Assembly: GCA_963722305.1 (NCBI GenBank)
Contig: CAVRKE010000001.1
Coordinates: 501,549 to 565,548, forward strand
Length of the DNA: 64,000 nt
Direction: 5' to 3'
DNA from: Candidatus Levyibacteriota bacterium
GTDB taxonomy: Bacteria; Patescibacteriota; Microgenomatia; Levybacterales; UBA12049
The translations under genes and the position numbers were made by a program. Each line of letters begins with the position of its first letter. The first letter of the stretch is position 1. Below are positions 1,071 to 64,000 of this stretch, one piece after another. The notes below the pieces were generated by a model. That model had not been told where the DNA came from and did no database searches. It was given only the letters and a program-made list of their open reading frames with translations.

Positions 1071-1808
1071 TTGTACTATCAGCCAAGACCGGTTAAACCC
1101 GAGGCACTCATTTTAATGAACAGAATTGATGAGGTATATACTGCCCACCCTTTTTATGGTTCAAGACGTATGGCAAAAGAGGTTGGTGTTAACAGAAAAC
1201 AGGCACAACGCCTGATGCGTGAAATGGGCTATGAGGCATTGTATCCGAAGCCTAATTTGAGTAAACCCGATAAACAACACATGTTCTATCCGTATTTACT
1301 CAAAGGAGTAGTTGCAGGATATCCAAATCATATCTGGGGCACAGATATTACGTATATTCGGATGAAACATGGGTTTGTATATTTAACTGCCTTTCTTGAT
1401 TGGTTTACCAGATTTGTTGTTTCCTGGAAGCTCTCAATTACCCTTGAAACAGACTTTTGTTTTGATGCTGCAACTGAAGCAATTGAGAAATTCGGAAGAC
1501 CAACCATTATTAATGAAGATCAGGGATCACAAAATACCGATCATCTGATGACAGATCTCTGGGAAAATCACAATGTCAAAATCAGCATGGACTCACGGGG
1601 ACGGGCACTGGACAATATCTTCACCGAGAGGTTATGGAGGAGTGTTAAATATGAAGAGGTATACTTAAAAGAATACGCTACTGTTTTGGAAGCAAAAGAA
1701 AACATTGAAAACTATTTTTACTTTTACAATTATGAAAGAAAACACCAATCGCTTAATTACAGAACACCGGCTGAAATATATTTTGGAAAGGAGGAAAACT
1801 TAGTCTAA
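1071..1808 (+). CDS. IS3-family transposase OrfB (DDE integrase core)
   Basis: rve-type motifs: WGTDITYI (D), NEDQGSQ (D), FTERLWRSVKYE (E). The frame is already open from 930 (..LDISRSSLYYQPRP), so the TTG at 1071 is probably not the real start. OrfB is probably expressed as an OrfAB fusion. Confidence 0.85.
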   Translation: MYYQPRPVKPEALILMNRIDEVYTAHPFYGSRRMAKEVGVNRKQAQRLMREMGYEALYPKPNLSKPDKQHMFYPYLLKGVVAGYPNHIWGTDITYIRMKHGFVYLTAFLDWFTRFVVSWKLSITLETDFCFDAATEAIEKFGRPTIINEDQGSQNTDHLMTDLWENHNVKISMDSRGRALDNIFTERLWRSVKYEEVYLKEYATVLEAKENIENYFYFYNYERKHQSLNYRTPAEIYFGKEENLV

Positions 1809-21737: not shown

Positions 21738-22475
21738 TTAGACTAAGTTTTCCTCCTTTCCAAAATATATTTCAGCCGGTGTTCTGTAATTAAGCGATTG
21801 GTGTTTTCTTTCATAATTGTAAAAGTAAAAATAGTTTTCAATGTTTTCTTTTGCTTCCAAAACAGTAGCGTATTCTTTTAAGTATACCTCTTCATATTTA
21901 ACACTCCTCCATAACCTCTCGGTGAAGATATTGTCCAGTGCCCGTCCCCGTGAGTCCATGCTGATTTTGACATTGTGATTTTCCCAGAGATCTGTCATCA
22001 GATGATCGGTATTTTGTGATCCCTGATCTTCATTAATAATGGTTGGTCTTCCGAATTTCTCAATTGCTTCAGTTGCAGCATCAAAACAAAAGTCTGTTTC
22101 AAGGGTAATTGAGAGCTTCCAGGAAACAACAAATCTGGTAAACCAATCAAGAAAGGCAGTTAAATATACAAACCCATGTTTCATCCGAATATACGTAATA
22201 TCTGTGCCCCAGATATGATTTGGATATCCTGCAACTACTCCTTTGAGTAAATACGGATAGAACATGTGTTGTTTATCGGGTTTACTCAAATTAGGCTTCG
22301 GATACAATGCCTCATAGCCCATTTCACGCATCAGGCGTTGTGCCTGTTTTCTGTTAACACCAACCTCTTTTGCCATACGTCTTGAACCATAAAAAGGGTG
22401 GGCAGTATATACCTCATCAATTCTGTTCATTAAAATGAGTGCCTCGGGTTTAACCGGTCTTGGCTGATAGTACAA
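21738..22475 (-). CDS. IS3-family transposase OrfB (copy 2)
   Basis: Protein identical to that of 1071..1808. Confidence 0.85.
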   Translation of the reverse strand: MYYQPRPVKPEALILMNRIDEVYTAHPFYGSRRMAKEVGVNRKQAQRLMREMGYEALYPKPNLSKPDKQHMFYPYLLKGVVAGYPNHIWGTDITYIRMKHGFVYLTAFLDWFTRFVVSWKLSITLETDFCFDAATEAIEKFGRPTIINEDQGSQNTDHLMTDLWENHNVKISMDSRGRALDNIFTERLWRSVKYEEVYLKEYATVLEAKENIENYFYFYNYERKHQSLNYRTPAEIYFGKEENLV

Positions 22476-22875: not shown

Positions 22876-23212
22876 AGAACTATTCTATCTTAGTCTAAGG
22901 TGACTGTGCAGATTATGGGGTCCATTATACTTTTGTAAGAAATTCTCTCCCCAAAAATTCTCCCCCTCTAAAATCAGGGTCATTGCTAGGATAAGCATAT
23001 CTACCCTTAAACGTCCTTAAAGGTTCTCCGATGTACATTGCTGCTTCACTATTTTTTCCAACCAGTTCTGCCATGGGCAGATTGTATCACGACGTAAATA
23101 ATATATCAAACAACATCAAGAGACATACTTGAGGACTTGCTTTTTTGAAAAGGGGTTTTGTGCCAAAAATTTTGGCAGGGTTGCTTAGACTCGAGATTAA
23201 AAGTGAGCGTTT

Positions 23213-47507: not shown

Positions 47508-47796
47508 TATGGTTTACCTGTCAAATTTGCCTCTTGATACATGCTGCGCTTTCCTTCGATTTCACTCAGGACTATAGTGCGCCCAGTCCTAAAGGATTTC
47601 GTTTCACTCAATATCGCGAACTATCTATAGACTATAGATATTTTGGGTCTTGATGCATGTTGCTTCGCTCAATACTTTCGCTCGGCCCAGTATCGCGTGG
47701 TAATTCTAAAATTGCCACTTGACAATTATGTTACACTTTGTTACTTTATCGTTGATTAATTATCATATTGATGACTATATGTATAGTCACAAGGTT

Positions 47797-48006
47797 ATGA
47801 ATAATCAAACCCTATCAATCAATAACCTACCCGATCTCCTGACAGTTAGGGAAGTGGCCCAAATCCTGAGAGTCTCCCCTCTCACCATCAAACGCTGGGG
47901 CAAAAGAGGAAAGCTCCCGGCCATAAGGATTAATTCCCGAGGAGATCGAAGGTACAAAAAGGAAGCCGTCCTCTGGCTTCTCGGTATTCAGGCAAAAGAA
48001 GAGTAA
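47797..48006 (+). CDS. Excisionase/MerR-type HTH DNA-binding protein (69 aa)
   Basis: LLTVREVAQILRVSPLTIKRWGKRGKLPAIRI. The start is set at the ATG at 47797, preceded by AAGG. The longer TTG-initiated track ORF is unlikely. Confidence 0.65.
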   Translation: MNNQTLSINNLPDLLTVREVAQILRVSPLTIKRWGKRGKLPAIRINSRGDRRYKKEAVLWLLGIQAKEE

Positions 48007-51622: not shown

Positions 51623-54600
51623 TTATTGAGTCGGTGTTATGGTTGGAGTTGAAGATTCAACCTGATTTAGAATTGATTGGAACGCCGCCGACTGGGTCGC
51701 TTGCGGTTCGGGTGTGGGCACTACCGGCTCCAGTCCCGCAGTTTTGGCATCCTGGACTGAAAGCGCCACCCAGGAAAAGTTAATATCTTCGGGTGCGGGT
51801 TTATTCAGCCGAATTGTAAATCCCTGGGTAGTTCTATCGGTAATCACATAAGAAAGATTACCGTTAAGGATGGCATCTTCCAAAGCTTTCTGGGCCACCT
51901 GGTCATTTATTTTGTCAAGGGCAATACTGGCAGTGACAACCGGTGTGTCGGCATACTCGTTGTCAAAAGTCACCGAAACAGTATCCTCTCCCTGCTTAAT
52001 CACCGCAAATCCGGCCGTATCGCTGTTGAAAGTCGGAGTTGAATTAAATCTGACGTTACCCTTAAACACCACGTCGTTCATAAAGTAACTAAAGCCGGAA
52101 ACGAGGAAATTATTGGTCGTCAGACTATCAAGAACATTCAAAGCGCCCTGGATAAGGCCGTTACCCGCAACATTTAAGTCGGCCGAAATAGTGGCCAAAC
52201 CGTTAACGTTCAAATCGGAAAGGTTGAGGGTTGAGGGAAGGGTTGTTGTCGCCGATGGCGTGGCTGTTGCCAATTCTCCGCTTTGAGTGGCATCGGAAAG
52301 AACCGCTACGCTATTAGATAGTGCTGAAATTTGGTTGGTCAGTATTTCCAAACCCTCAATATGGTCGGCCCTGATGGTTTTGGCAGTAATTAAGTCGGCG
52401 ACAATTTCCGGGCTGATTACCTCGCCGGCCGCCACTGTTCCGGTGAAAACTTCCGAAGAATTAAACGCTGCCGAACCGGCGTCCTTAAGGCTTTGCAGGT
52501 ATACCAAAGTATTTTGGTCACCGCTGGAAATTTGGTTCATGTAGGAATCAAGGCCGGTATCCCCATAGATATCGGCAAACCCCGCACTGGTCGAAGCCAC
52601 AAAGTTTTCGTCCGCCATTGCCAGCTCGACACTTTCGCCGTTATAGCTGGTTAAGTTAACAAAGACCGTGATAGTTCCGCATTGGGTGGTTGACAAACTG
52701 CCTGCCCCTTGGGCCGGACAATCGGAAACTTCGGTTGGGTCGGTCGGGTCAAAATCCTCAATAGCAGTTCCCAACACTCTGCCGGCCACCGTGGCTTTCA
52801 TCGCGTAACCGGGAATTGAAGACGATGTCAGGTAATCACCGGAATGGATTGGCCCGTTTTCGGTGGAAACCAGCACGGGCACGCGTCCCACAAGGGCGAT
52901 GGGATAAGAATCCGGTGTGTAAGCACCCGCTACGAATCCCGGGTCTGTTGAAACCACTCCCATGATGTTACTTTGGTATTGCATAGTTGACTGAATCACA
53001 TTTTGTGCATTAAATTGGTCGCCGACCACCACTTCTCCCGGATTTAAAGTTTGGGTGGAGGTGTAATTTTCCGCTAAATCCGCCCCGCCCGAGTTCCACG
53101 CCCCGCCTGCGGCTGTGTAAGCCTGTCCGTCGGCGGCAAACCTAAAGGCATTCATTCCTTCACTGGTTAAAGTCAAAATATTCGGGTCTGTGGTATTTGC
53201 CAGTCTCCAGTACTGCAAAGTTGGCGTCTGTATCTGCCTATAATAATCAACTGAACCTCCGCTATCTATTCCTGACCAAACTCTCTCTTTCTCATAAGGC
53301 ATATTTGGCATTGTTCCAGTAAGGGTAAACTTAAACTGCGCCCAGGTGTCGCCGGCATTTGGATTAATCAATCCACCGGCTTTTTCGACATCATTCCAGT
53401 TGGTGGCCGTCATGGCGGCCAAACTTGAACCGGTTCTTGATTGGACTCCGATTGCCCCCTGCCCGACATTTTTCCAGTCGAGCGAAGTATTGGCAGTAAG
53501 GTTATTGGAATTTATTGGTTCAGTCACATACGTCCCCTGTAAATTCCAGCCGGCATCAATGATCATTGTATTGGAACTGCCTCCTACAATGACTACAAAT
53601 TTTCCATCCGGTCTTTGAAAAACATTTGTGCCCGCAGCTAAATTGCTAGGCGAAGGTAACGTCGGGCCTGCCCAAGTTCCTCCTACAACCTGTACAGAAG
53701 GGTCCACAATTGTTGTCGAGGTTGCCCCGCCGTTTGCCCACAGTATTTTTCCATCCGGCAAAGGAATTGTAAATGCGCCCGCTCCGGCATTGGCAGACAA
53801 AACTTCACCGAGCGCGGCGGTAAACGTACCAAGTCTTGCATCATAAAGATAAATCGTAGTCGCGGCTGTTCCTCTGGTTTGCAGCCAGTTGCCGTTGGAA
53901 ATTTGCACAGTGGTTGCGTTTGCCCCGTATGCAGCAGTGGTAGCAGGGCCAACAACAAAAGAGTTGCTTGATTCTTCATAGATATCGGTTACCGCACTGG
54001 TCCCTAAAAAGACAAGGTATTTTCCGTCAGGCCTTTTAATGCTGTAGGCTCCAGCGGTGACCGTTGATGTAGTGGCCGGACCGGCTGTAAATGAATTTAA
54101 GAACGGGTCGTAAATGTTGGTATTGGCTGTTGCACCTCCCAAAATTATCAGAAATCTTCCATCAGAGCGCAAAATAGCATGAGCGCCTGCGCCAATTGCG
54201 GCTGTTACGCTAGGTCCGGCGAAAAAAATATTTCTGACCGGATCATAAATATCTGTAAGCTGAGAGGCGCCTATAAACAACATAAACTGCCCGTTGGGTA
54301 AAGGTATCGAGAATGAACCGGTATTCGGATTGCTCGCCCCAACCGTTGTCGGACCGACAGTGAACAAACCGGTAGTCGAATCATACATTCTGGTTGCGTT
54401 TGAATTACCAGCTAAGATAATCAAAAACTTACCGTTTGGCAACTGTAGAGTGTGGGACCCTGTTCCAGCAGTGCCGCCCAAGTCCGCCGAGGCAGATGCA
54501 ACAATAATATCGGCATTAGAACTTGGCACGCTGCCATTTTCAAACGTTGCCAAAGTAACGGAATCGGAATCGCCAGTAACTGTTCCGTTAAAAACCGCGC

Positions 54601-57600
54601 TTTGGGTGGCGGCGTTTCTATCTTCGGTTGAATCACTGGCCAGTACTCCACCGTAGCCGGCAATTGGATTCTGGATTTTGAAATCATAAAGCGTCGGTTG
54701 GGTAATTTGGCGCACGTACTCGGTTGAACCCTCTGACGCCCACATGTTGCTTGGCACTGCCGTTCCTACCACTTGGTTATAAGGCGGGGCAATCGGCGAG
54801 TTGAATTGAATTTGAACCTTGACTTGAGTCGCACCCGGCATAGTTTGAATCAAATCGCCGTTGTTTTGAATTAAGTTGTAACTCACACTGCCAAGATTCC
54901 CGTTAACAGCCGTTTTGACATAAACCTCGACTCCGGCCGAAGGCGACGCCGAAACCGCAGGCGTCGAATCCCAAAAAATCGCCGAATAGGTGGAAATTTT
55001 TGTGCTGGTAATATCTTCCGATGTCCAAACACCACCAGTCCTCCAACCTACGTCATAAACCGTCGAGTTTGTACCAAGTGCACCGTTAAGAATTAAATAA
55101 CTTCCGTTATCTCTCTGGAATACGCCGCCCCCTACCCCAACCGAATTAGGTAAATTATTGGTAACCTGCGTCAGACTGCCGGTTGTACCGGAGGTCGGGT
55201 CGTAAAGATATGTCGCTTTTGAACCGTTGCCAACCGTAATTATCCATTTGTTGTTGGCCATTTGAAAAGCGGTTGAACCGGTGCCGACTTTATCACTAAA
55301 TTGCGGTCCGGCTGTAAATGTGTTAGTGGCAAAATTATAAATATCCGTATTGATATTATTGTTGGCATCAATCACCATAAACCTGCCATCAGGCAGTTGC
55401 AAAACATTGGCGCCGGTACCCGCAGCCGACTGGAGCGTCGGTCCGGCCGAAAAAGTACTGGTTACAGGATCATAAATATTGGTGGTAGTGGTGTTACCGC
55501 CCAGGATTACTATCCACTTTCCGTCCTGACGCTGGAAAACCGCCGAACCGGAAGCGACAATATTACCTGCTCCCGATAAAGCCGGCCCCTGGGCCATAGT
55601 GTTGGCAACCGGGTCATACAATGCGCTATATTGTGAACCGCCGAGTAAAACCAGGAACTTGCCGTCGGAATGCGGAATAACGCGGGAACCACCGCCGGCG
55701 ATATACTGGACGCCGCCAATTACTGGCAGATTCGGGCCAACCGCGATTGAACCAAAATTATTACTTCCGGCCGGGTCATAAATATCGCTTCTGTTGGCAT
55801 AAGTGATTACGAATTTCCCATCCTGTCTTTGGAAAACCGCCGAGCCGGAACCAATGGTTGCAGTTAAGTTAGGTCCGACGGTAAAAGTATTGGTCGGCAC
55901 GCTATACGTGTAAATTCTGGCGCTGGCAGCCGATACTCCGCCTAAAAATGCTACTACTCCGTTTTGCTGCCGCATAATTGCCGAACCCGAAGAAATTGGG
56001 ATTACCGTTGAAGGTGCGCCGGTGGAAGTTGGATTGATAGTGCTTGCAGTTAAAGAATTATCAACCTGCATTGAAATATCATTATTTGCAATTGAAACGT
56101 TAGTTGAACAGTATCCACTGCCGCTGCAGAAAGTTCCTTGGGTAAAGTCTGAAGTGGTGTTTTTAGTGATATCATCGTTGGTTGAATTTCCGGCAATTCT
56201 AGCAGAACCGACAACGTCAAGATTGTAACCGGAATTAGCTAAAGAACCGCCAATCCCGACACTGCCGTTTTGGTTAACGACAAATCTGGTTGCCCCGGAA
56301 GCAGAAGCGGCAATCAAAGCGCCGGTTCCCGAATTGTCGACGACCAGACCAGCAAAAGAAGTTGCCCCGGAAATGGAGGCGATAGCAATTGTGCCATTAT
56401 TAAGTCTGACATCAAAGTTTGCCAGAGGAGTAGTTCCGTCAGTGTTAATCCCCACCAAACCTGAGCCGCCCGGATTAATCGCAAAGTTTTGGTTAGTTGC
56501 GGTGCTGATTGTATCAATACCGGTTCCGGTAAAGCTAATTCCCGAACCATTGCCGGCCATCACTAAATTCCCGTTTTGCTGAACGGTGAATAAAGGCACG
56601 CCGGAGGCTGAAGCCGTAAAAATATCTCCTGTTCCCAACTGGTTTATTGTTAATCCCGCAAAAGAACTATTTCCGGAGAAAGAAGCTACTCCCAAAGTTC
56701 CGCTGGAACCCCGAACATCCAAAGTGGCAAGCGGCGCGGTGGTGCCAATACCAATCATGGCGCTGGCGGTAGCGTTGTTGACACCTAAAATACTACCTAA
56801 GATTAAACTGTTGTTTTGTGTTACATAAGCATTGGCTCCAATGGCTGTGGCGTTAATCAGATTGCCTAAACCAACATCGGCACCATACCCCAAAAGCGTA
56901 TTTAAGCCTCCAACGTCAATTGTCTGTCCTGCCTGATCACCCACGGCAGTATTGTTGGTACCAAGAGTCGTACTTTGACCCGCCTGATAGCCGAGGAAGG
57001 AGTTTTGAAAACCGGCGGTGTTGGAAAAACCTGCTCTGCCACCGAGGAAGGAATTGTTATATCCGGCGTTATTGTTATAACCTGCATAAAACCCGAGGAA
57101 GGAATTGTTATACCCGCTGGTATTGAGCCAACCTGCCATATAGCCGAGGAAGGAGTTGTCGTATCCGGTCAGGTTGGATAAGCCCGCCGTTTCGCCAAAG
57201 AAGGAGTTTTGGTATCCGGTGGTGTTATTTTGACCTGCGTAAGATCCGAGGAAGGAATTTTGGTATCCGGTCAGGTTGGATAAGCCTGCATAAAATCCAA
57301 CGAAGGAATTGTTATTCCCGGCGGTATTAGCACCACCTGCAGAATCTCCAACGAAGGAATTATTGTATCCGGTGGTATTAGAATTACCTGCATAAGCTCC
57401 GAGGAAGGAATTGTAGGATCCGCTGGTATTAACACTACCTGCATTCATACCAAGGAAGGAGTTATTAGATCCGGTAGTATTATATTCACCTGCGCCATTT
57501 CCAAAGAAGGAGTTTAGAGATCCGGTGGTGTTGCTTTGGCCTGCCTGATAGCCGATGAACGAGTTAGAGCCACCAGTGGTGTTGGATTGACCTGCGTTTA

Positions 57601-60600
57601 GGCCGATAAAGGTATTGGATTTGCCCGATCCTCCGTTTCTAAAATCTATTGCGGTTGTGCCGTTAGAGTTTAAAATTGTGGCAATCGGACTAACTGTATT
57701 TACTTGCCTGAGGATAACGTTATCAATTGTTCCGTACCAATTCATCGTTGGGGTAAAAGTAAGGTCTCCCGCGCCGAAAGAAGTAATCAGTTGGGTGTCG
57801 GTTTTACTCATGTTGACGTCTTGACCGACGGCTGTACCGTTTGTTCCTCCAACACCCGGAGTTAAGGAACCGGAAGAAGTACCGGTAGTTGTAAAAGTGT
57901 AAGTCAGCTCATAAGTACCGGCAGCAATAAGCGTATCAAAATCAGTCGTGTTATTAGTTAAAGTAAATACCCCTGTTCCCGGAGCATCTTTAGCCGCAAC
58001 ACCACTTGAATTAACATTAACATTCCACGGGGGCTGTCCGCCTGATGTTGTCCAGTGGCCGGTGCCCGAAAATTGACTATCGTTAGCAACGTTCTTAATC
58101 TTATTCGCTTGTACATAACTAGCGACGTCTCCGCCAACAACTCCCTCAATCGCCAGTTTTGCTGTTGGCGTATTTGTTCCAATCCCGACATTGCCGTTAT
58201 TTTGTATTACAAACTTCGTCCAACCACTGGCGGAGGCGGTAAATAAATCCCCAACGCCGTCATTGTTGGCCACCAAAGAAGCAAAGGATGTTGCTCCGGA
58301 AATTGAAGCAATGGCGATTGTCCCAACGTTAGGCCTAACATCAAAATTGGCCAGAGGAGTAGTTCCGTCGGTGTTGATGCCAAAAAGACCGGTGCCGCCC
58401 GGATTAATCGCGAAGTTTTGGTTACTGGCAGTGGTAATAGTATTTAATCCTGAAGTTCCCGAGAAGTTAAGGTCTGCTCCGTTCCCCGACAATGTGATTC
58501 CGGTTGTTCCTGCCAAAGTCAAGTTGCCGGACGAATCAATGTAATTTGTGGCGCCAAAAAACTGCAGGTTGCCGGTTGAACCGGAATTAAGAGTTAGAGT
58601 GTTTCCACCGGTGTTTGTAATTGACGGGCTAGAACCGGTAAAAGCCAGATTTCCGCCATTACTTAAGGAGGCAAAAGTGCCAGCCCCAAGGCCCGTTACA
58701 GACCACTGAGCATCATTAAGTGCCAGATCACCGCTTGAAGCATTGCCGATGGTGATAGTTCCGGCATTTGAACCCGTACCAATGTTGGTGGTATTACTGC
58801 CCGAAGTATTAATACTGGTTGCACCCAAAACGGTTAAACCACCCAGAGTTCCCACCGAAGTTAAGGAAGAGCCGGTCACTCCCGAGCCTAAAGTAGTGGT
58901 AGACAAAACGGAAGTGCCTCCGATTTGGTATGCTCCCGAAGCGTTAACATTACCGGCATTGGAAATTGTGAACCTCGGCCAACCGGAAGCGGAGGCAGTA
59001 AATAAGTCCCCGACGCCATTGTTATTGGCCACTAAAGTTGCGAATGAAGTTGTTCCGGAGATGGAGGCCACCGCTAAAGTGCCGGAACTGCCCCGAACAT
59101 CCAGGGTTACGAAGGGAGCAGTTGTGCCGATACCAATATAGCCGGTATTATCCCGGATAGTCATGGCAGTTGCCCAGGTGTTCAGTCCTGACTTGTAGCC
59201 AAAGTTTAAAGTGCCGTTCCCCGGCTCAATGGTAGAGCTGTTTGTTCCTCCCAACACTAAAGTGGCAGAGATGGAAGCGCTACCGGTCGGAGCACCGATA
59301 TTGACTACTGTGGCAGCTCCGGCAAGATTAAGTGTGCCGGTTAATCCGGTATTAAATACAGCCAGAGATCCGGAAGTTTGGTTAGTAGCAATGGTTGTAC
59401 CATTAAGCGTGATTGTTCCCGAAGCACCGCCCATAGTTAGAGTTGTCGTTGCGCCACCATAGGTGATTGATGTCGGCGTCGCCAATTCCGTAACCGTAGC
59501 CAGACTGGAATTAATGTTTGAGGCGTTAAGATTGATGACGCTTCCTGCCGCCGAGTTTAATGGAGCAAGAGTAATATTGCCGCTGGTATTCCCGCCAATG
59601 GTTAAGAGCTGGTTATTGGTCGTTTGAATAGCCCCTGTTCCATAGATACTAAAAGTTAAATTACCGGAGATAGAAGCATTACCACCCAACTCATTAGTGC
59701 CACTGGTATAAGGCATCACAACCAGGTTGCCGCCGACTGTGGCAACCGGCGTCCCGCCAGCGAGGTTTAAAACCGCAAAGGCAGCCGAACTGGTTGCTTG
59801 TGAACCGATTAGAAAATCCGCAGTTGAGTTAATCGGCGTAATATATCCTCCTCCAACACCGCTAACCAAATTCCAGTAATTCGCTCCACCGCAACCGCTA
59901 CAAGACATAACCGTTAAGGCTCCGCCCTTGGTAATATGCCAGGAGTTACCTGTTCCCTCAATATCGTAAGAATAGCCGGAGGTTGTGCCTGATAAATTAA
60001 GCTGCAGACCTACCTGGTTAAACGAGCCGTTCGCTCCCGAAAGGTTTAAGGCCAAACCAACTACCCCCCCGGTTTGCGAAGTTGAGTTGGTAAGATTGGC
60101 CAAAGTACCGGTTGAACCCGTATCGGCATAGATTAAACCCGTGCCTGAATTTGGTAGTTTAACCGTAACACCATTTGCTACCTGCAAGGTGCCGGAGGTC
60201 GAGGCGTTTCCGGAGGTGTCCTGAACGGTTAGGCCGGCCACCTGTTGGGCATTAAAGGCAAACGGGACTGCGGCCATCTGAATTCTGGGAGTCATTTCGG
60301 AATCACTCCCTACTTTGACTCCCAGATAGAGTCCATCCCAATTGAAATTAAAATTGGCAGGAAATGCAACATTAGAGCCCAAAGCCACTCGGAAAATTCC
60401 GTCAACCGTGGTTACCGAATCTGTTTCTTGCCAGAGGTAACCCGAAGCCGGACTACCCGCGGTTGGGTGGTTATAGAAAGAGAAAGTCACCGAGTAGGTG
60501 CTATTGGTGACATTCGTTCCGGCGGCGTTAACCAGTTTTCCCTGAAAATTGATGGTGCGGTTAATGCCCGGCGCAGCCCACACCGGCTTTGTGAAAAATA

Positions 60601-60676
60601 GCGAAAAATTGGCAAGAAAAAAGACTATTGCCAAAACGGTCAAAAAGTGTCTAAAATTAGAGTGTGGTTTAAACAT
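51623..60676 (-). CDS. Giant secreted/surface protein (3017 aa): repeated tail-fibre-like modules, 14-residue YadA-head-like repeats, two Kelch-like beta-propeller arrays
   Basis: Uninterrupted 9-kb ORF with an N-terminal signal/anchor (LTVLAIVFFLANFSLFFTKPVWA|AP). The module GIGTTAP..LDVRG..GT.A.ASISG.TSFA.LV.N..G.GDLFTASASG occurs four times. About 14 copies of NSF.G..AG..NT.G. About 14 blades of ..DGKF.VI.GG....T.IYDP....F..GP...... Confidence 0.85.
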   Translation of the reverse strand: MFKPHSNFRHFLTVLAIVFFLANFSLFFTKPVWAAPGINRTINFQGKLVNAAGTNVTNSTYSVTFSFYNHPTAGSPASGYLWQETDSVTTVDGIFRVALGSNVAFPANFNFNWDGLYLGVKVGSDSEMTPRIQMAAVPFAFNAQQVAGLTVQDTSGNASTSGTLQVANGVTVKLPNSGTGLIYADTGSTGTLANLTNSTSQTGGVVGLALNLSGANGSFNQVGLQLNLSGTTSGYSYDIEGTGNSWHITKGGALTVMSCSGCGGANYWNLVSGVGGGYITPINSTADFLIGSQATSSAAFAVLNLAGGTPVATVGGNLVVMPYTSGTNELGGNASISGNLTFSIYGTGAIQTTNNQLLTIGGNTSGNITLAPLNSAAGSVINLNASNINSSLATVTELATPTSITYGGATTTLTMGGASGTITLNGTTIATNQTSGSLAVFNTGLTGTLNLAGAATVVNIGAPTGSASISATLVLGGTNSSTIEPGNGTLNFGYKSGLNTWATAMTIRDNTGYIGIGTTAPFVTLDVRGSSGTLAVASISGTTSFATLVANNNGVGDLFTASASGWPRFTISNAGNVNASGAYQIGGTSVLSTTTLGSGVTGSSLTSVGTLGGLTVLGATSINTSGSNTTNIGTGSNAGTITIGNASSGDLALNDAQWSVTGLGAGTFASLSNGGNLAFTGSSPSITNTGGNTLTLNSGSTGNLQFFGATNYIDSSGNLTLAGTTGITLSGNGADLNFSGTSGLNTITTASNQNFAINPGGTGLFGINTDGTTPLANFDVRPNVGTIAIASISGATSFASLVANNDGVGDLFTASASGWTKFVIQNNGNVGIGTNTPTAKLAIEGVVGGDVASYVQANKIKNVANDSQFSGTGHWTTSGGQPPWNVNVNSSGVAAKDAPGTGVFTLTNNTTDFDTLIAAGTYELTYTFTTTGTSSGSLTPGVGGTNGTAVGQDVNMSKTDTQLITSFGAGDLTFTPTMNWYGTIDNVILRQVNTVSPIATILNSNGTTAIDFRNGGSGKSNTFIGLNAGQSNTTGGSNSFIGYQAGQSNTTGSLNSFFGNGAGEYNTTGSNNSFLGMNAGSVNTSGSYNSFLGAYAGNSNTTGYNNSFVGDSAGGANTAGNNNSFVGFYAGLSNLTGYQNSFLGSYAGQNNTTGYQNSFFGETAGLSNLTGYDNSFLGYMAGWLNTSGYNNSFLGFYAGYNNNAGYNNSFLGGRAGFSNTAGFQNSFLGYQAGQSTTLGTNNTAVGDQAGQTIDVGGLNTLLGYGADVGLGNLINATAIGANAYVTQNNSLILGSILGVNNATASAMIGIGTTAPLATLDVRGSSGTLGVASFSGNSSFAGLTINQLGTGDIFTASASGVPLFTVQQNGNLVMAGNGSGISFTGTGIDTISTATNQNFAINPGGSGLVGINTDGTTPLANFDVRLNNGTIAIASISGATSFAGLVVDNSGTGALIAASASGATRFVVNQNGSVGIGGSLANSGYNLDVVGSARIAGNSTNDDITKNTTSDFTQGTFCSGSGYCSTNVSIANNDISMQVDNSLTASTINPTSTGAPSTVIPISSGSAIMRQQNGVVAFLGGVSAASARIYTYSVPTNTFTVGPNLTATIGSGSAVFQRQDGKFVITYANRSDIYDPAGSNNFGSIAVGPNLPVIGGVQYIAGGGSRVIPHSDGKFLVLLGGSQYSALYDPVANTMAQGPALSGAGNIVASGSAVFQRQDGKWIVILGGNTTTTNIYDPVTSTFSAGPTLQSAAGTGANVLQLPDGRFMVIDANNNINTDIYNFATNTFTAGPQFSDKVGTGSTAFQMANNKWIITVGNGSKATYLYDPTSGTTGSLTQVTNNLPNSVGVGGGVFQRDNGSYLILNGALGTNSTVYDVGWRTGGVWTSEDITSTKISTYSAIFWDSTPAVSASPSAGVEVYVKTAVNGNLGSVSYNLIQNNGDLIQTMPGATQVKVQIQFNSPIAPPYNQVVGTAVPSNMWASEGSTEYVRQITQPTLYDFKIQNPIAGYGGVLASDSTEDRNAATQSAVFNGTVTGDSDSVTLATFENGSVPSSNADIIVASASADLGGTAGTGSHTLQLPNGKFLIILAGNSNATRMYDSTTGLFTVGPTTVGASNPNTGSFSIPLPNGQFMLFIGASQLTDIYDPVRNIFFAGPSVTAAIGAGAHAILRSDGRFLIILGGATANTNIYDPFLNSFTAGPATTSTVTAGAYSIKRPDGKYLVFLGTSAVTDIYEESSNSFVVGPATTAAYGANATTVQISNGNWLQTRGTAATTIYLYDARLGTFTAALGEVLSANAGAGAFTIPLPDGKILWANGGATSTTIVDPSVQVVGGTWAGPTLPSPSNLAAGTNVFQRPDGKFVVIVGGSSNTMIIDAGWNLQGTYVTEPINSNNLTANTSLDWKNVGQGAIGVQSRTGSSLAAMTATNWNDVEKAGGLINPNAGDTWAQFKFTLTGTMPNMPYEKERVWSGIDSGGSVDYYRQIQTPTLQYWRLANTTDPNILTLTSEGMNAFRFAADGQAYTAAGGAWNSGGADLAENYTSTQTLNPGEVVVGDQFNAQNVIQSTMQYQSNIMGVVSTDPGFVAGAYTPDSYPIALVGRVPVLVSTENGPIHSGDYLTSSSIPGYAMKATVAGRVLGTAIEDFDPTDPTEVSDCPAQGAGSLSTTQCGTITVFVNLTSYNGESVELAMADENFVASTSAGFADIYGDTGLDSYMNQISSGDQNTLVYLQSLKDAGSAAFNSSEVFTGTVAAGEVISPEIVADLITAKTIRADHIEGLEILTNQISALSNSVAVLSDATQSGELATATPSATTTLPSTLNLSDLNVNGLATISADLNVAGNGLIQGALNVLDSLTTNNFLVSGFSYFMNDVVFKGNVRFNSTPTFNSDTAGFAVIKQGEDTVSVTFDNEYADTPVVTASIALDKINDQVAQKALEDAILNGNLSYVITDRTTQGFTIRLNKPAPEDINFSWVALSVQDAKTAGLEPVVPTPEPQATQSAAFQSILNQVESSTPTITPTQ
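56900..57616 (-). repeat. In-frame 42-bp tandem repeat array (~14-17 units) inside the giant gene
   Basis: The plus strand shows a periodic ..CCGAGGAAGGAATT.. every 42 bp, encoding NSF(L/F/V/I)G..AG..NT(T/S)G... Confidence 0.85.
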
Positions 60677-60707
60677 TAATTAATACTACCTACGGTAGTA
60701 TTAATTA
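60677..60707. promoter_or_regulatory. Perfect 14-bp inverted repeat (3-nt spacer) directly abutting the giant-gene start codon
   Basis: TAATTAATACTACC TAC GGTAGTATTAATTA. The ATG of 51623..60676 occupies 60676-60674. Confidence 0.6.
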
Positions 60708-60802
60708 CAGCAATTATAAGGCTGGAGGTCAAATCCTAGAAAGACTTGCATATTATTATTTATAATTGTATACTATTGCATAGCTAATTTTTCACGATAA
60801 TT

Positions 60803-61084
60803 ATGGAAAACCTAATGAATGTTAAGCAAGTTGCGTTTATTCTTAAAGTCCATCCCCTAACGGTTCGCCGTTACATAAAAAGCGGAAAATTAAAAGCAGT
60901 CAGGGCCGGCGGCAATGTCCGGATTAAGGAATCAAGTCTGACGGAATTTAACAAAGACTTTACCACTGCTTCCTCACAAAGACAAATTATTAAAAGCAGA
61001 CTCCGCCCGGCAAAGATTTTTACGCTTGACGACCCGTTATTTAGGCTCAGAGGCCGTGGAGCAAGCCTGAACTTAAGCCCCTGA
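60803..61084 (+). CDS. Excisionase/MerR-type HTH DNA-binding protein (93 aa), possible antitoxin-like partner
   Basis: MNVKQVAFILKVHPLTVRRYIKSGKLKAVRAGGNVRI. A TTGCAT-N17-TATACT promoter lies upstream (about 60747-60775). Confidence 0.6.
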   Translation: MENLMNVKQVAFILKVHPLTVRRYIKSGKLKAVRAGGNVRIKESSLTEFNKDFTTASSQRQIIKSRLRPAKIFTLDDPLFRLRGRGASLNLSP

Positions 61085-61109
61085 GATTTAGAATTATGAA
61101 GCTAGAATT

Positions 61110-61220
61110 ATGAATCAAGGAAAAATACAATCATTTACAGATTTACATGAATGGCAAGAAGCTCAAGAATTAACCATGATCTTTCAGAAAATGACTAATT
61201 CTTTGAGAAATGCTAATTAA
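61110..61220 (+). pseudogene. Truncated remnant of a four-helix-bundle (23S-IVS-type) protein gene
   Basis: MNQGKIQSFTDLHEWQEAQELTMIF matches the I.SF.DL..WQ.A.EL N-terminus of that family. The ORF stops after 36 codons. Confidence 0.4.
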
Positions 61221-61263
61221 ATCATTCACTGAAAATTGTAAATTGAAAAATGAAAATTGAATT

Positions 61264-61683
61264 ATGACCAGTAAAAAAGTTTATATCGCACCCAGCGCTT
61301 TTTACGCTCTAATTGACCGTGCCCATCCAAAACACGATCAGTCAGCGGCTTTCTTCCGGTTTTGCGCCGAGCAAAAATACATGCTATTTACCGATACAAA
61401 CACCTTAATCGAGGCTTATAATCATGTCTATATGGAAATTAGTCCTTCCCTGGCTAAAGACTTTTTGCGCACGATTTTTTTAGGCAACATTAACATTATT
61501 TACCCCGAAGAAAGCGACATTAAAGCCGCTTTGAAAACCTTAATCAATTACCAATCAACCGAGTTAACTTTTTCCCAAGCGCTGCGGGCAGTTTTGGCAA
61601 ATAGGCGCGGCGTTACGCAAGTGTTTACTTTTGATTACTTGCATCCGTTATTTGGTTTAAGCGTTTTCTATCTGCCGATATGA
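61264..61683 (+). CDS. PIN-domain-like protein (two of four canonical acidic residues substituted)
   Basis: The C-terminal TFSQALRAVLANRRGVTQVFTFDYLHPLFGL matches the PIN pattern (sf.Da..la.A.r.g...v.TfD.df). The first-strand Asp is Ala (VYIAPSAF), and the third acidic position is Gln. Confidence 0.5.
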   Translation: MTSKKVYIAPSAFYALIDRAHPKHDQSAAFFRFCAEQKYMLFTDTNTLIEAYNHVYMEISPSLAKDFLRTIFLGNINIIYPEESDIKAALKTLINYQSTELTFSQALRAVLANRRGVTQVFTFDYLHPLFGLSVFYLPI

Positions 61684-64000
61684 GAATAAATCAAAAAATT
61701 AAATTAACAAGCATGCTGCTCGGTTTAGCTCTTATTCTTTTAGCTTTCTTAATGGCTTTTTCCCAAAATTCAGCCTCATTACCAAGCTTTTCCGCTCCAA
61801 ACTTTATCACTAACGCTTCGGGAAATTATGTGGCTAAAAATAGTATTTTTGAAGCTATTTTCCCTGGCCAAAGCCGTGAACCGATAACCATAACTAAAGA
61901 TAAAAGCCTTTCGTTTACTCTGGCTAACGCCCAAGCCACGCAGGCCAAAGTTGATGGCAATAAAATCCTTTACGCAAATGCTTATTCATCCTCAAACATT
62001 GTATATCAAACTATAAATAATGGTATCAAAGAATCAATCATTCTACTGTCTAATACTAACATTCCCGATGAATTTTCCTATAATTTTAATGCCCAGGATT
62101 TAAAGGCAGAACTTGCCAACGACAACAGCATTGAGTTTACGCAAATTTCCAATGAGCCGGCCAAAGATATTCCCGTTTCCGACGGAACAGTTATAAAAGC
62201 AAACCAGGCAGTAAATTATTTGCCGGAACATCCGGTCCGTTTTAAAATTGCCCCCCCGATTATGATTGATGCTAAAGGCCAAAAATCACAAGTCTCGGAC
62301 GTAAAAGTAATCTTGGGCAAAAACTCTTTAACCCTTATCCCTAACAAGGACTGGCTGAAGAAAGCGACTTTCCCGGTTACCCTGGACCCAACAGTCGAAA
62401 CGACTCCTCAGATTGTCAAAGAATTGGCAAACAAAAGAACCGAAACTTCCAAAGAATTCCTCAATGACGACGGCTCATATACCTCCGTCATTTATCAAAA
62501 CCCTATCCAATATAAAGACGGTAATACTTACAAAGACATTGACAGAACTTTTCGACTGTCCGATGACCCGAGCTACAAGTACCAGGTTAAAACCGGGATT
62601 TATATTGCCAGACTAAAAAAGACTCTCAGTGGTCAAAGCGATATTGAACTGGATTTTGGCGGCAGCAGCCTTGGCCTTTCTCCCCTTTCGATCGGCTGGG
62701 ATAACGGCGACAACCTGGGAACAGTAAAAGCGGTTGAGGGCAAGATTTCCGGCGACGGGTCATCTGTCACCTACTCAAGTTTGTTTGGCATCCAAGGTGT
62801 TGATCTACAAGCCACTTATGACAATGAGAAATTTTTGAAAGAAACCGTTATCAATGACCCACAAGCTATTCAGGCGCAAAATCATACTAATGATAATTTG
62901 GAAATAAACTTTGCCCTGACTATTCCATCCGACGTTGACTTAAGGGTGAACGGTAAAACTTGGGATAAAACTTCCACCGTTGAAACCCAGGATACAATTG
63001 GCGTTTTTAAAAACGGTGTCGAAATTTCCGACCTTCGCAAAGCCATTGTCTATGGCGCAAGCAAAGACCCGACAAATTTAAATAACATTCAAATCATTAC
63101 CATTAGGCTAGCCAAAGTCGGCAATCAGTTAATCTTAACCAAAATCATTTCCGGAAACTGGCTTTCAAACGCAATATATCCTGTCCGCACCGACACCACC
63201 GACACCATCTACGCTGATACAACCGACGGAGAAGTAGATAGTTACAGCGCTAGCGGTAGCTTTGAGAATGCGCGTAATGGTATAGGGGATGCCACATTTT
63301 TCGGTTCGTCGACAGTTACGACCGCTACGATAGGTCAATTTTGGGAAGTTACTATTTCTAACGTCTATGACGTATATCAATACTTTGTACAATTTAATAC
63401 CTCCGGCATAGGAACAGATACGATTAGTTCGGCCACCTTTTCTTTATATGGGGATGGAGCTAATACTGCTCGAGACTGGACTATTGAAGTAAGAGTCGAT
63501 GACTGGGGACCGTCCTTAGACATCGGTATGCCCGATTTTGTAGCCGGCACAAGTCTTGGCGGACTGACACTTGTCGCCCACTGGGATCCTTACACCTCCG
63601 GTTGGCCTACGAATGCCTATACTGATTTTACCGACGACGCAATGGCCGCTAATATCAATAAGAACGGACAGACCCGATTAATGCTTGACAGTAGTCGGGT
63701 GCGCCTCGACCAACCTTATGTTTATCCTTCGGGCGAGACAGCAGATTTTTATACCGCCGATCAAGCCGGCACTTCACAGGATCCGAAACTGACCATTGTA
63801 CATTCGTCCAGCAACCCAATTCCACCTTCCAGTCCTTCCAGTAGTACTTATACCTTGATCGACTATGGTTTTGGCTCGGGCGGAACCGCCAATTCCAGCG
63901 ACGGAACATACCAACTTTACGCGATTTCCGGGGAAATCGAATCTGCTAGTCCAAGCTCGCTAAATTACGGCTTGTTGCCGGGATTAACCTATACTCTCCA
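61680..64000 (+). CDS. Large secreted protein, 5' partial (>773 aa, continues past the window end)
   Basis: The ATG at 61680 overlaps the PIN stop (ATGA). I translated the frame by hand from about 62640 to 64000 and found no stop. N-terminal signal/anchor LTSMLLGLALILLAFLMAFS. Recurrent module ends read (F/Y)PV(T/R).D(P/T)T. It is absent from the ORF track because no stop lies in the window. Confidence 0.75.
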   Translation, partial: MRINQKIKLTSMLLGLALILLAFLMAFSQNSASLPSFSAPNFITNASGNYVAKNSIFEAIFPGQSREPITITKDKSLSFTLANAQATQAKVDGNKILYANAYSSSNIVYQTINNGIKESIILLSNTNIPDEFSYNFNAQDLKAELANDNSIEFTQISNEPAKDIPVSDGTVIKANQAVNYLPEHPVRFKIAPPIMIDAKGQKSQVSDVKVILGKNSLTLIPNKDWLKKATFPVTLDPTVETTPQIVKELANKRTETSKEFLNDDGSYTSVIYQNPIQYKDGNTYKDIDRTFRLSDDPSYKYQVKTGIYIARLKKTLSGQSDIELDFGGSSLGLSPLSIGWDNGDNLGTVKAVEGKISGDGSSVTYSSLFGIQGVDLQATYDNEKFLKETVINDPQAIQAQNHTNDNLEINFALTIPSDVDLRVNGKTWDKTSTVETQDTIGVFKNGVEISDLRKAIVYGASKDPTNLNNIQIITIRLAKVGNQLILTKIISGNWLSNAIYPVRTDTTDTIYADTTDGEVDSYSASGSFENARNGIGDATFFGSSTVTTATIGQFWEVTISNVYDVYQYFVQFNTSGIGTDTISSATFSLYGDGANTARDWTIEVRVDDWGPSLDIGMPDFVAGTSLGGLTLVAHWDPYTSGWPTNAYTDFTDDAMAANINKNGQTRLMLDSSRVRLDQPYVYPSGETADFYTADQAGTSQDPKLTIVHSSSNPIPPSSPSSSTYTLIDYGFGSGGTANSSDGTYQLYAISGEIESASPSSLNYGLLPGLTYTL

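Follow-up and report, generated by a model that had tools for sequence, protein, structure and literature searches.

A putative operator palindrome abutting the start codon of a giant gene in Candidatus Levyibacteriota

Palindromic operators that lie over the -10 and +1 positions, such as the LexA boxes and lac O1, provide the classical examples of steric repression. Classical MerR regulators, which dimerize by means of a coiled coil, act on a dyad located between the -35 and -10 elements of promoters with a 19- to 20-bp spacer. In VapBC/FitAB-type complexes, inverted repeats are bound by DNA-binding domains that are flexibly tethered to a toxin dimer, and the VapC toxins themselves are structure-specific stem-loop nucleases. 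At the level of RNA, thermometers are start-codon-sequestering hairpins, typically with mismatches or G·U pairs. To our knowledge, gene regulation in bacteria of the Candidate Phyla Radiation is almost wholly unexplored, and the giant surface proteins of these bacteria are prime candidates for host attachment. The small MerR-like winged helix-turn-helix (HTH) proteins BldC of Streptomyces and Gp36 of mycobacteriophage D29 bind head-to-tail direct repeats and not palindromes (PMC5859096, PMC12266134), and the combination of a truncated MerR with a PIN protein constitutes a predicted toxin-antitoxin (TA) class (Makarova et al. 2009, PMC2701414).

In the 64,000-nucleotide stretch of Candidatus Levyibacteriota DNA analyzed here (the window), a giant gene and a small HTH gene diverge from an intergenic region that holds a compact set of cis elements, namely, a 31-bp palindrome, back-to-back -35 boxes, and a 10-bp-phased direct-repeat array. 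Alongside these, the locus encodes a conserved pair of candidate trans factors, a truncated-MerR HTH protein and a VapC-like protein. The features are as follows.

51623 to 60676, minus strand: giant gene, encoding a 3,017-aa secreted or surface protein with a signal-peptide-like N terminus (MFKPHSNFRHFLTVLAIVFF...) and mature end APGINRTINFQGKL
60677 to 60707, no strand: palindrome with 14-bp arms and a 3-nt center; candidate operator over part of the -10, the predicted transcription start site (TSS), and the giant-gene leader
60683 to 60688, minus strand: TAGTAT, alternative -10 located in the 3' arm, with 6 nt between it and the ATG; would give a leaderless mRNA
60704 to 60709, minus strand: TGTAAT, -10-position hexamer with a 17-nt spacer and TGc before it; predicted TSS at about 60699 to 60696
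60713 to 60718, minus strand: TATAAT, alternative -10 within the spacer of P1 and 5 nt upstream of the palindrome
60727 to 60732, minus strand: TTGACC, -35 box of the putative promoter P1, 90% conserved, 23 nt (22 to 24) from the palindrome core
60744 to 60783, plus strand: array of four 10-bp-phased boxes (ACTTGCATAT, TATTATTTAT, AATTGTATAC, TATTGCATAG) over the HTH promoter
60746 to 60774, plus strand: HTH promoter TTGCAT-N17-TATACT (TTGCAT at 60746 to 60751, TATACT at 60769 to 60774)
60803 to 61084, plus strand: HTH_17 protein, 93 aa, a truncated MerR/BldC/Xis-like winged HTH with a low-confidence C-terminal tail; antitoxin-like
61264 to 61683, plus strand: PIN-like protein, 139 aa, of the VapC fold, partner of the HTH protein; first catalytic Asp not conserved

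The palindrome, TAATTAATACTACC-TAC-GGTAGTATTAATTA, is perfect: its two 14-nt arms, at 60677 to 60690 (TAATTAATACTACC) and 60694 to 60707 (GGTAGTATTAATTA), are 100% complementary around the 3-nt loop TAC, and it directly abuts the giant-gene ATG (CAT at 60674 to 60676, minus strand). The first-pass annotation had described such a hairpin touching the start codon, within a control region common to the two divergent genes, and both its arms, loop, and coordinates and its location were borne out. Among perfect hairpins with stems of 10 bp or more and loops of up to 12 nt, it is the only one in the window. Stems in 20 dinucleotide shuffles of the window reached 12 bp at the longest, and we estimate the chance expectation of a 14-bp stem at about 0.004 (0.256^14 multiplied by 64,000 positions and by 13 loop sizes). 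A second copy of the arm was sought in the window, and none was found. Two other kinds of element were considered and rejected: no intrinsic terminator was called at the palindrome, the stem of which is AT-rich rather than GC-rich and lacks a T tract, and an invertible phase-variation switch requires two separated inverted repeats around a promoter plus a recombinase, whereas here there is a single hairpin with a 3-nt center and no recombinase among the adjacent genes scanned. By itself, the palindrome is a regulatory element of an ordinary type, found in a phylum about which little is known.

The start codon of the giant gene is sound, because the N terminus is conserved from residue 1 in the orthologues and an in-frame TAA lies two codons upstream of the ATG; a Pfam scan of the 3,017-aa protein returned no domain. 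Promoters in this genome are canonical (TTGACA-N17/18-TATAAT) with strong -35 boxes, the -10 element falls 6 to 10 nt before many ATGs, and even a loose match to a Shine-Dalgarno (SD) sequence precedes only 7 of 47 genes. A missing ribosome-binding site and ATG-proximal promoter elements are hence the rule and not signs of special control; the earlier remark that there is no room for a ribosome-binding site is true of the giant gene but not distinctive of it. For annotation, the lesson is that SD-less or leaderless initiation is normal in this genome. A literature search on leaderless translation in Patescibacteria found nothing relevant.

Among the possible promoters, P1 (TTGACC at 60732 to 60727, N17, TGTAAT at 60709 to 60704) is the best supported, with its TSS being a prediction from the hexamer positions. 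Conservation of TTGAC was dropped as proof of this -35 box, since loci without an adjacent giant gene likewise conserve GTCAA...TTTTCACA upstream of the HTH gene. The assignment instead follows from the fixed 17-nt spacing and from a sister locus without the palindrome (L058), which reads TTGACG-17-TTTACT-6-ATG. That arrangement, taken with the general promoter habit of the genome, makes it look as though the palindrome had been inserted into a gene that would otherwise be leaderless, between its -10 and its ATG. TGTAAT shares its last 4 nt with the palindrome, of which they form the outer edge, and the hexamer at this position has G or T in place of the critical -11 A in 17 of 18 aligned loci (G in the window). 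Leaderless initiation from TAGTAT-N6-ATG fits the window and is a minor alternative, as the corresponding spacing in the relatives is 5 to 8 nt in 12 of the 18 loci and just 3 nt in the other 6. All three candidate -10 hexamers lie within the palindrome or at most 6 nt from it, and the palindrome is about 55 bp upstream of the -35 box of the HTH gene, from which the giant-gene ATG is only about 55 nt away.

The first-pass annotation had proposed that conservation be examined in relatives. In 20 other Candidatus Levyibacteriota loci, a perfect palindrome with 11- to 15-bp arms, a 3-nt loop, and the core TAATATTAC occupies the same position, beside an orthologue of the giant gene, itself large and transcribed divergently from the same HTH_17 gene. 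Wherever enough flanking sequence is available to judge, HTH-PIN homologues adjoin the palindrome. More widely, in 46 of 80 related loci, the HTH gene has as its divergent neighbor a gene for a homologue of the N-terminal domain of the giant protein, and the palindrome is found in only 13 of these 46. Its absence from relatives with the same gene pair had been named as an outcome that would refute the proposal; the palindrome is conserved in relatives with the pair, being present in these 13 loci and lacking in the remainder. A search with the giant N terminus recovered short homologous fragments only, and the contexts of three of these (L252, L253, and L254) were looked up. All three have the palindrome and an adjacent PIN-like gene in the same arrangement, so that the palindrome did not turn up in any clearly distinct setting; as for the HTH gene, HTH_17 was called in L252 and none was called in L253, and we take a 46-aa fragment in L254 to be the HTH protein.

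Across 18 aligned loci, identity is 0.98 and 0.96 in the two arm cores, against 0.59 in the adjacent 17-nt spacer, 0.50 in the loop, and 0.65 in codons 2 to 9. The arms are thus conserved in primary sequence beyond what pairing would need, which is the pattern of two recognized half-sites (TAATAyTAC) with an uncontacted center. The 18 stems contain zero G·T pairs, and the loop occurs in both orientations (GTA in 8, TAC in 3), which together point to the same constraint on both strands, as expected of DNA and not of RNA. Further, the palindrome is anchored to the promoter: the distance from TTGAC(N) to its core is 23 nt (22 to 24) in all loci listed, though the sequence of the spacer has diverged. 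The distance to the ATG, on the other hand, is variable, being -2 to +1 nt in most loci, 10 nt in L048, and 8 nt in L254. Taking these observations together, we propose that the palindrome most likely functions at the level of DNA, where a repressor would bind it, instead of forming a hairpin in RNA, and more specifically that it is a cis-regulatory element of the giant-gene promoter bound by a 2-fold-symmetric factor as a putative operator, a reading to which we assign a probability of roughly one-half.

The palindrome spans the edge of the -10, the predicted TSS, and the entire leader of about 21 nt, up to the ATG. A sequence-specific factor with 2-fold symmetry would bind both TAATAyTAC half-sites and, once bound, would block either the binding of RNA polymerase or promoter escape, so that the 9-kb giant gene would stay off until the factor is released. 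The nearest candidate for the binder would be the HTH_17 protein in a symmetric complex with its VapC-like PIN partner, as in the VapBC/FitAB-type complexes. In its dyad symmetry, its conserved half-sites and nonconserved center, its extent from the -10 edge to about +25, and its place in a divergent intergenic region beside a regulator gene, the site resembles operators of the LexA and lac O1 type. It differs from them in that its binder is putative only, its center is either 3 or 5 bp, and its arms are without exception perfect over 11 to 15 bp, a degree of complementarity that operators do not usually show. The earlier description of the repeat as a textbook dimeric-repressor operator is hence plausible in its operator part, given the placement between the -10 hexamer and the ATG where a repressor would block, while the HTH dimer is unproven. 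Likewise, of the tight control, transcriptional or translational, that had been suggested, the former is compatible with the position of the site on DNA, and a translational hairpin is the weaker reading.

Several observations count against the operator. Although the dyad symmetry exceeds chance and the half-sites are conserved in the orthologous promoters, their spacing is not fixed: the center is 3 bp in one form of the palindrome (form B) and 5 bp (C-NNN-G) in the other (form A), and in L048 each arm is 3 nt shorter. These indels are symmetric and preserve pairing, and a rigid dimer should not tolerate them. The variant in the window also shows a compensated T:A-to-C:G change on both arms, which is what a structure would need, and an unrelated palindrome with 14-bp arms at the same promoter position in L075 hints that self-complementarity itself may matter. 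Finally, the HTH domain is near-invariant in 80 loci, and the restriction of the palindrome to 13 of the 46 gene-pair loci seems to fit poorly with this.

The first alternative to the operator, which we regard as unlikely but credible, is an RNA hairpin. Were transcription to start at or just upstream of the palindrome, e.g., from TATAAT at 60718 to 60713, the mRNA would begin with the complete hairpin, at the base of which the AUG would lie, and the stem would shield the 9-kb mRNA from 5'-end-dependent decay or throttle the initiation of translation. On a by-eye reading of the alignment, most of the 18 loci do have a TAnAnT hexamer in that column, 2 to 8 nt upstream of the outer stem edge, and no TAnAnT hexamer occurs in that spacer in the palindrome-free relatives inspected. 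The full stem, like other AU-rich 5' mRNA stem-loops immediately before an AUG, would fold at between -8 and -14 kcal/mol (-14.0 in the window and -8.3 to -12.7 in the relatives); its pairing is kept perfect by symmetric substitutions and indels, and in 17 of the 18 loci its end and the ATG are -2 to +1 nt apart. However, TATAAT at 60713 to 60718 has neither a -35 box at 16 to 18 nt nor a TGn, despite the strong -35 boxes of the genome, and the P1 TSS at about 60699 to 60696 would lie inside the 5' arm, in which case the mRNA would not fold into the 14-bp stem that has the AUG at its base. Transcription of the entire stem is hence doubtful, and the full 14-bp RNA stem probably never forms. The statement of the first-pass annotation that the AUG sits at the base of this stem is weakened accordingly, and further by loci in which the ATG lies 10 nt (L048) or 8 nt (L254) past the stem. 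There is no G·U-tolerant covariation and no strand-specific loop, the conservation of the arms goes far beyond structural need, and, as opposed to RNA thermometers, these stems have no mismatches or G·U pairs and no SD sequence to sequester. A perfect stem at the AUG would also hinder initiation in a genome that relies on unstructured or leaderless starts. An Rfam search of the region yielded no family at the gathering score, just two chance-level matches.

The reading closest to the first-pass annotation has the 93-aa HTH protein act alone, as a classical symmetric dimer on the palindrome, to repress the giant gene. Its gene is divergent and adjacent, HTH-PIN homologues lie beside every palindrome locus that can be judged, and the fold is of the HTH_17/MerR type; we nevertheless consider this version quite unlikely. 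The description of the protein as an excisionase/MerR-type HTH holds insofar as it matches Pfam HTH_17 (E value of 3.9e-11) and the "excise" family TIGR01764, but the match to MerR is below the cutoff, and it is not a classical dimeric MerR. It additionally matches BldC (6ama/6amk; E value of 2e-3), Xis gp37 (4j2n; E value of 3e-4), and, below its cutoff, NF033787. In the structure model there is no long helix and no dimerization helix or coiled coil, and residues 55 to 93, i.e., the C-terminal 40 or so residues, are of low confidence, the tail being probably disordered. A MerR-type HTH in the regulator and the dyad symmetry of a site in a region of divergent promoters are shared with classical MerR operators, but a MerR-type operator was likewise rejected, given the 17-nt spacer, a dyad positioned downstream of the -10, and the absence of a coiled coil.

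The closest characterized relatives of the HTH protein, BldC and D29 Gp36, use head-to-tail direct repeats. Repeats of this kind, spaced by about one helical turn, are absent from the palindrome and present in the array at 60744 to 60783, over the protein's own promoter. That promoter, TTGCAT-N17-TATACT, is present as earlier claimed, and in three relatives (L002 to L004) the HTH ATG follows TATACT by 7 nt. At least two TTGCATA boxes are found in 65 of the 80 related loci, with an exact 10-bp spacing in 84 cases, and the array is also present where the giant gene is not adjacent. The DNA-binding domain is nearly invariant across all 80 loci, in contrast to the clade-restricted palindrome. Hence, the array is a probable candidate for the binding site of the HTH protein, and it is more probable that the HTH protein alone binds these phased repeats than that it binds the palindrome. 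When scored against the profile of the boxes, the palindrome arms of the window and of form B are at background (best score of 2.9 bits in a position weight matrix). In form A, 8 of the 10 positions of one 10-mer (TATTACCTAC) agree with the HTH box TATTGCATAC. A palindrome made up of two inverted HTH boxes was considered and not adopted, as this weak resemblance is confined to form A and L075.

With its low-confidence tail and the VapC-fold PIN protein encoded beside it, the truncated MerR-like HTH protein resembles both the VapBC/FitAB systems and the predicted PIN-MerR class (PMC2701414). The best Foldseek matches of the PIN model are VapC20 and VapBC (TM scores of 0.75 to 0.82), and the fold matches include DNA-bound complexes (3zvk, 2bsq). 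As in type II TA systems, a small HTH gene is followed by an adjacent PIN-fold gene, but the four acidic active-site residues of the PIN domain are not all conserved: A, E, S, or T takes the place of the first catalytic Asp after strand 1, D44 and D85 are invariant, and position 124 is mostly D or E. TA operators lie on the module's own promoter, whereas here the palindrome is on the divergent promoter of the neighbor and the direct repeats are on the HTH promoter. Unlike mobile TA modules, moreover, the pair is single copy, syntenic, and 50 to 86% conserved across a phylum. Between the two genes, a short open reading frame at 61110 to 61220 was considered as a remnant of a 23S-rRNA intervening-sequence (IVS) protein and rejected, with no Pfam match and no BLASTP similarity to the IVS protein of L008; the sole support was positional, from L252.

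Two readings that do without a protein were also weighed against the operator. One, which we view as improbable, is that negative supercoiling drives extrusion of the AT-rich palindrome into a cruciform that covers the -10 and +1 positions, making the promoter sensitive to supercoiling independently of any protein. The perfect AT-rich arms and the minimal 3-nt loop would suit extrusion, symmetric indels occur, the inversion of the loop (GTA/TAC) would imply intrastrand pairing in vivo, and the unrelated palindrome of L075, also with 14-bp arms, occupies the same promoter position. Such a model does not need the strong conservation of the arm sequence, most of the orthologous promoters have no palindrome of any kind, and arms of 11 to 15 bp are barely long enough to extrude. 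The other, which we hold to be very improbable, assigns the palindrome no function and views it as a by-product of template-switch mutagenesis (quasi-palindrome correction) in an AT-rich promoter, with the same process maintaining its symmetry. Loop inversions, symmetric indels, and perfect arms are indeed the signature of this process, and the core word is generic and palindromic in many unrelated genomes and phages, but the core is 96 to 98% kept across clades, compared with 59% in the neighboring noncoding positions, and its position is fixed relative to the -35. Least probable of all is that the HTH-PIN pair is a domesticated TA module controlling the giant gene, with the HTH protein on the array and the altered VapC-like protein on the hairpin, either as an RNA 5' stem-loop or as extruded DNA, which would fit the symmetric indels, the compensated substitution, and the palindrome of L075 and, if true, would mean control via nucleic acid structure instead of a conventional operator.

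A search for other copies of the palindrome, which had also been proposed, was extended beyond the window to metagenomes and viral sequences. A metagenome scan with the 18-base core recovered at least 120 loci; only 4 among the matches listed are the Levybacteria locus, and most among those listed are unrelated AT-rich palindromes, the core being insufficiently specific (TAATATTA alone is self-complementary). The exact palindrome variant of the window had 0 matches in a viral scan. With the consensus arms, the viral scan recovered 50 contigs, none of which encodes homologues of the HTH, PIN, or giant proteins, and many of which have an unrelated palindrome, TTAATATTAC-ATTAA-GTAATATTAA, right before an AGGAG-type ribosome-binding site.

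A perfect inverted repeat touches the start codon of the giant gene, as the first-pass annotation had claimed, and lies between this codon and the promoter (P1) that we favor for the gene:

60677-60690, left arm of the palindrome, TAATTAATACTACC, 14 bp, a perfect inverted repeat with the right arm
60694-60707, right arm, GGTAGTATTAATTA, 14 bp, with the loop TAC between the arms
51623..60676, minus strand, giant gene, 3,017 aa; CAT at 60674-60676 is its ATG
60732-60727, minus strand, P1 -35, TTGACC, 17 nt from the -10
60709-60704, minus strand, P1 -10, TGTAAT, preceded by TGc and followed by TAATACTACC GTA GGTAGTATTAATTA ATG

The start codon is sound because a stop codon, TAA, is found in frame two codons before it and because the signal-peptide-like N-terminus (MFKPHSNFRHFLTVLAIVFF...VWA/APGINRTINFQGKL) is conserved from residue 1 in orthologues. 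In the 64-kb window, the palindrome is the sole hairpin to combine perfect pairing, a stem of 10 bp or more, and a loop no longer than 12 nt; the longest stem in 20 dinucleotide shuffles never exceeded 12 bp, and we estimate the chance expectation of such a palindrome at about 0.004. Other copies, a search for which had been proposed with the annotation, were sought within the window, and no second arm copy was found there; neither was a terminator-like tail at the palindrome nor an Rfam match to it. A Logan contig encoding an identical HTH protein begins (L001:1, window 60708) at the first base past the palindrome, and unrelated metagenome-scan contigs (L137, L152, and L200) also begin or end at palindromes of their own; such ends are probably assembly or sequencing breaks at hairpins, not biology.

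A scan with one genome per species gave 80 loci (L002-L081), with titles that, where informative, read Candidatus Levyibacteriota or unclassified Patescibacteria, many others being “uncultured Gammaproteobacteria.” The last label is probably wrong for L008, L010, L011, L013, and about 35 other “uncultured Gammaproteobacteria bacterium” MAG records, which carry a Levybacteria-type locus. Twelve of the 80 (L002-L008, L018, L026, L029, L041, and L060) have a perfect palindrome of the form TAATATTAC(C)-NNN-(G)GTAATATTA, and L048 has a shortened one, GAATTAATAC-TTC-GTATTAATTC; in these 13 loci it is present in one copy, in the divergent intergenic region, adjoining the CAT of a large gene. At least four further palindrome loci are found among the matches listed from a metagenome scan (L125, L149, L154, and L160) and three among the contexts of homologues of the giant N-terminus (L252-L254). 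Homologues of the HTH-PIN pair adjoin the palindrome in every locus whose contig suffices to judge, and in 46 of the 80 loci the gene that diverges from the HTH gene encodes a homologue of the giant protein's N-terminal 150-300 residues. The palindrome is clade-specific, not universal: in a neighbor-joining tree of HTH plus PIN it is confined to two clades plus L048, and 33 loci keep the gene pair without it, so that the absence from relatives that the first-pass annotation had named as telling against its reading is found in part.

Other clades have different self-complementary sequences at the same giant-gene promoter. GCGCGCG-TATAGG-CGCGCGC precedes the orthologous gene in L072, and TATATACGCGCG stands immediately 5' of its ATG in several of L074, L052, L063, L066, L073, and L078; L075:3706-3734 is a perfect 14-bp-arm palindrome, AAATATATATTGCA-A-TGCAATATATATTT, unrelated to that of the window, which is centered on the orthologue's ATG and, like the window's, begins within the -10 hexamer. 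Many of 50 virus or prophage contigs from IMG/VR (L202-L251, commonly 33-47 kb) share the palindrome's 10-bp arms with a 5-nt center, mostly as TTAATATTAC-ATTAA-GTAATATTAA, the commonest variants lying directly 5' of an AGGAG-type ribosome-binding site. This element is unrelated, since no homologue of the giant, PIN, or HTH protein is encoded on any of the 50; it is possibly a phage operator.

P1 is most likely the giant-gene promoter, judging from the fixed distance of 23 nt (22-24) between TTGAC(N) and the arm core in the loci listed despite diverged spacer sequence, from TTGACT-18-TATATT in the same place in distant palindrome-free orthologues, and from TTGACG-17-TTTACT-6-ATG in L058, a palindrome-free sister of the palindrome loci L041 and L060. 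The geometry of L058 is the standard leaderless arrangement of the genome, and with P1 the palindrome has the appearance of a sequence inserted after the -10 and before the ATG. Promoters in the window are canonical TTGACA-N17/18-TATAAT, often with TGn, and place the ATG 6-10 nt past the -10 (for instance, at gene starts 10384(-), 44385(-), 26694(-), 46442(-), and 36990(+)); just 7 of 47 genes have so much as a loosely SD-like word between -18 and -6, further starts of the SD-poor or leaderless pattern being 7349(+), 18536(+), and 24466(-). With SD words nearly absent and promoters this close to the ATG, leaderless or SD-less initiation appears to be the usual mode in this Levybacteria genome. 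The earlier remark that no room is left for a ribosome-binding site thus holds for the giant gene but does not set it apart.

The transcription start site (TSS) predicted from P1 most likely falls at about 60699-60696, within the 5' arm, and of the stem the transcript would retain at most 6 bp in the window and next to nothing in relatives with a 3-bp center (form B). A weakness of P1 is that 17 of the 18 aligned loci have no A at position -11 of its hexamer. By eye, most of these loci have a TAnAnT hexamer 5 nt upstream of the palindrome (in the window TATAAT, 60718-60713, which has no -35), and TAGTAT-N6-ATG in the 3' arm would yield a leaderless mRNA in the window, the spacing being just 3 nt in six relatives. 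With any of the -10 candidates, the palindrome is predicted to overlap either core promoter elements or the first part of the transcribed region.

Taking these findings together, we propose, with a probability of roughly 0.5, that the palindrome is a DNA operator, which would extend over the giant gene's TSS and short leader and over the edge of its -10. A sequence-specific role as DNA is suggested by the very high primary-sequence conservation of the arm cores around a free center: column identity is 0.98 and 0.96 in the 9-nt cores, 0.90 in the -35 box, 0.81 in the -10-position hexamer, 0.65 in codons 2-9 of the giant gene, 0.59 in the 17-nt spacer, and 0.50 in the loop. Further, the palindrome is anchored to the -35 rather than to the ATG (the gap between stem and ATG is 10 nt in L048 and 8 nt in L254), and G.U-type pairs are absent: all 18 aligned loci combine perfect arms of 11-15 bp with a 3-nt loop, and the nine arm variants include no G.T pair. 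The loops are GTA (8 loci), TAC (3), and GAA (7); GTA and TAC are mutually reverse-complementary, and the same constraint is therefore seen on both strands. The palindrome belongs to a known type of element, and regulation in this phylum is almost unexplored.

Three features count for structure as such, namely, the T:A to C:G change of the window, which is found in both arms; symmetric indels, by which form A (5-bp center, C-NNN-G) gains a central C/G pair and L048 loses 3 nt per arm; and the unrelated palindrome of L075 at the matching promoter position. An RNA hairpin at the 5' end would accord with these, the entire hairpin being the mRNA 5' end if TATAAT at 60718-60713 were used; given the short stem expected from P1 and the lack of G.U-type pairs, we consider it unlikely.

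As for the protein that might bind the operator, the first-pass annotation had pointed to the divergent HTH protein as a textbook dimeric repressor. The relevant features are:

60744-60783, HTH box array, four units (unit TATTGCATAC), over the HTH gene's own TTGCAT-N17-TATACT promoter
60803..61084, plus strand, HTH gene, Pfam HTH_17 (E 3.9e-11), TIGR01764 “excise”
61264..61683, plus strand, PIN gene, 139 aa, AlphaFold model pLDDT 85.5

The promoter is as described earlier for this neighbor, and the excisionase match accords with that description. Its model comprises a confident winged HTH (residues 1-54) and a low-confidence stretch resembling an antitoxin tail (residues 55-93). Identity is 50-86% across Levybacteria (window and 79 related loci), and Patescibacteria metagenomes hold 699 homologues, the best 120 of the 699 at 67-86% identity; among solved structures, those nearest in sequence are Xis gp37 (4j2n, E 3e-4) and BldC (6ama/6amk, E 2e-3). 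Classical MerR dimers have palindromes as binding sites, whereas BldC and D29 Gp36, which are small and MerR-like but lack a coiled coil, bind direct repeats head-to-tail (PMC5859096, PMC12266134). The latter mode is matched here not by the palindrome but by TTG[CT]ATA boxes with an exact 10-bp period (84 adjacent pairs), at least two of which are present in 65 of the 80 loci. In the window and among L002-L081, the array comprises 3-4 direct repeats over the HTH promoter and follows a conserved GTCAA-N4-5-TTCACA word; it occurs regardless of the upstream neighbor, including in loci without an adjacent giant gene. By analogy, the BldC/Xis-like HTH probably binds this array, through which it most probably autoregulates, since the array is widespread, the DNA-binding domain is almost invariant in all loci, and the palindrome arms score no better than background against the profile of the boxes.

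The same background score makes it unlikely, slightly more so than for the RNA hairpin, that the HTH acts alone as a dimer, which would be one particular form of the operator reading; moreover, the near-invariant domain parallels the widespread array, not the clade-specific palindrome, and the coiled-coil-free relatives favor direct repeats. The earlier interpretation is supported in part, more as to a DNA operator than as to its binder. If the HTH also acts on the palindrome, a two-fold symmetric complex with its VapC-like partner would be the more plausible form, one in which flexible tethering could accommodate the 3-bp and 5-bp centers. This partner has no Pfam match (PF01850 is found in some homologues); its model matches VapC20 as well as numerous VapBC complexes (TM 0.75-0.82), and the first catalytic Asp is not conserved, being replaced by A/E/S/T. 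Makarova et al. (PMC2701414) predicted a toxin-antitoxin class, “PIN-MerR (truncated),” to which the pair conforms. Unlike typical or mobile modules, the pair is syntenic, strongly conserved across the phylum, and single-copy in each locus examined.

A cruciform, with which the symmetric indels and the L075 palindrome would also accord, is very improbable beside the sequence conservation of the arms. A nonfunctional by-product is slightly less probable again, even though loop inversion and symmetric indels also mark template-switch correction of quasi-palindromes, which would maintain perfect arms without selection on individual pairs.

A second HTH_17/MerR_1 gene (47797-48006, plus strand, 69 aa, E 8e-11) lies downstream of a TTGACA promoter, with the palindrome GACTATA-TG-TATAGTC in its leader (47771-47786) and the related words GACTATAG and CTATAGACTATAGA at 47561-47632. 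Genes or fragments for the 23S-rRNA-intervening-sequence protein (IVP; PF05635) are inserted at varied points of relatives' loci: between the HTH and PIN genes (L252:2199-2586), at L008:2490-2858, and upstream of the HTH gene in L058, L068, and L069. The window's 179-bp HTH-PIN gap (61085-61263) holds a 36-codon ORF (61110-61220), for which no similarity to IVP was demonstrated, and GAATTATGA repeats. A second large secreted protein (61681-64000, plus strand) starts at the PIN-gene stop codon and runs past the window end; it has 1,043 aa in L001 (1007-4138), and most relatives have a protein of about 360 aa instead. A 1,233-bp segment occurs twice, inverted and at 100% identity (617-1849 and 21697-22929), each copy encoding a 245-aa ORF (1071..1808, plus strand; 21738..22475, minus strand) that by eye resembles an IS3-type transposase; the two are probably an insertion sequence pair about 20 kb apart.
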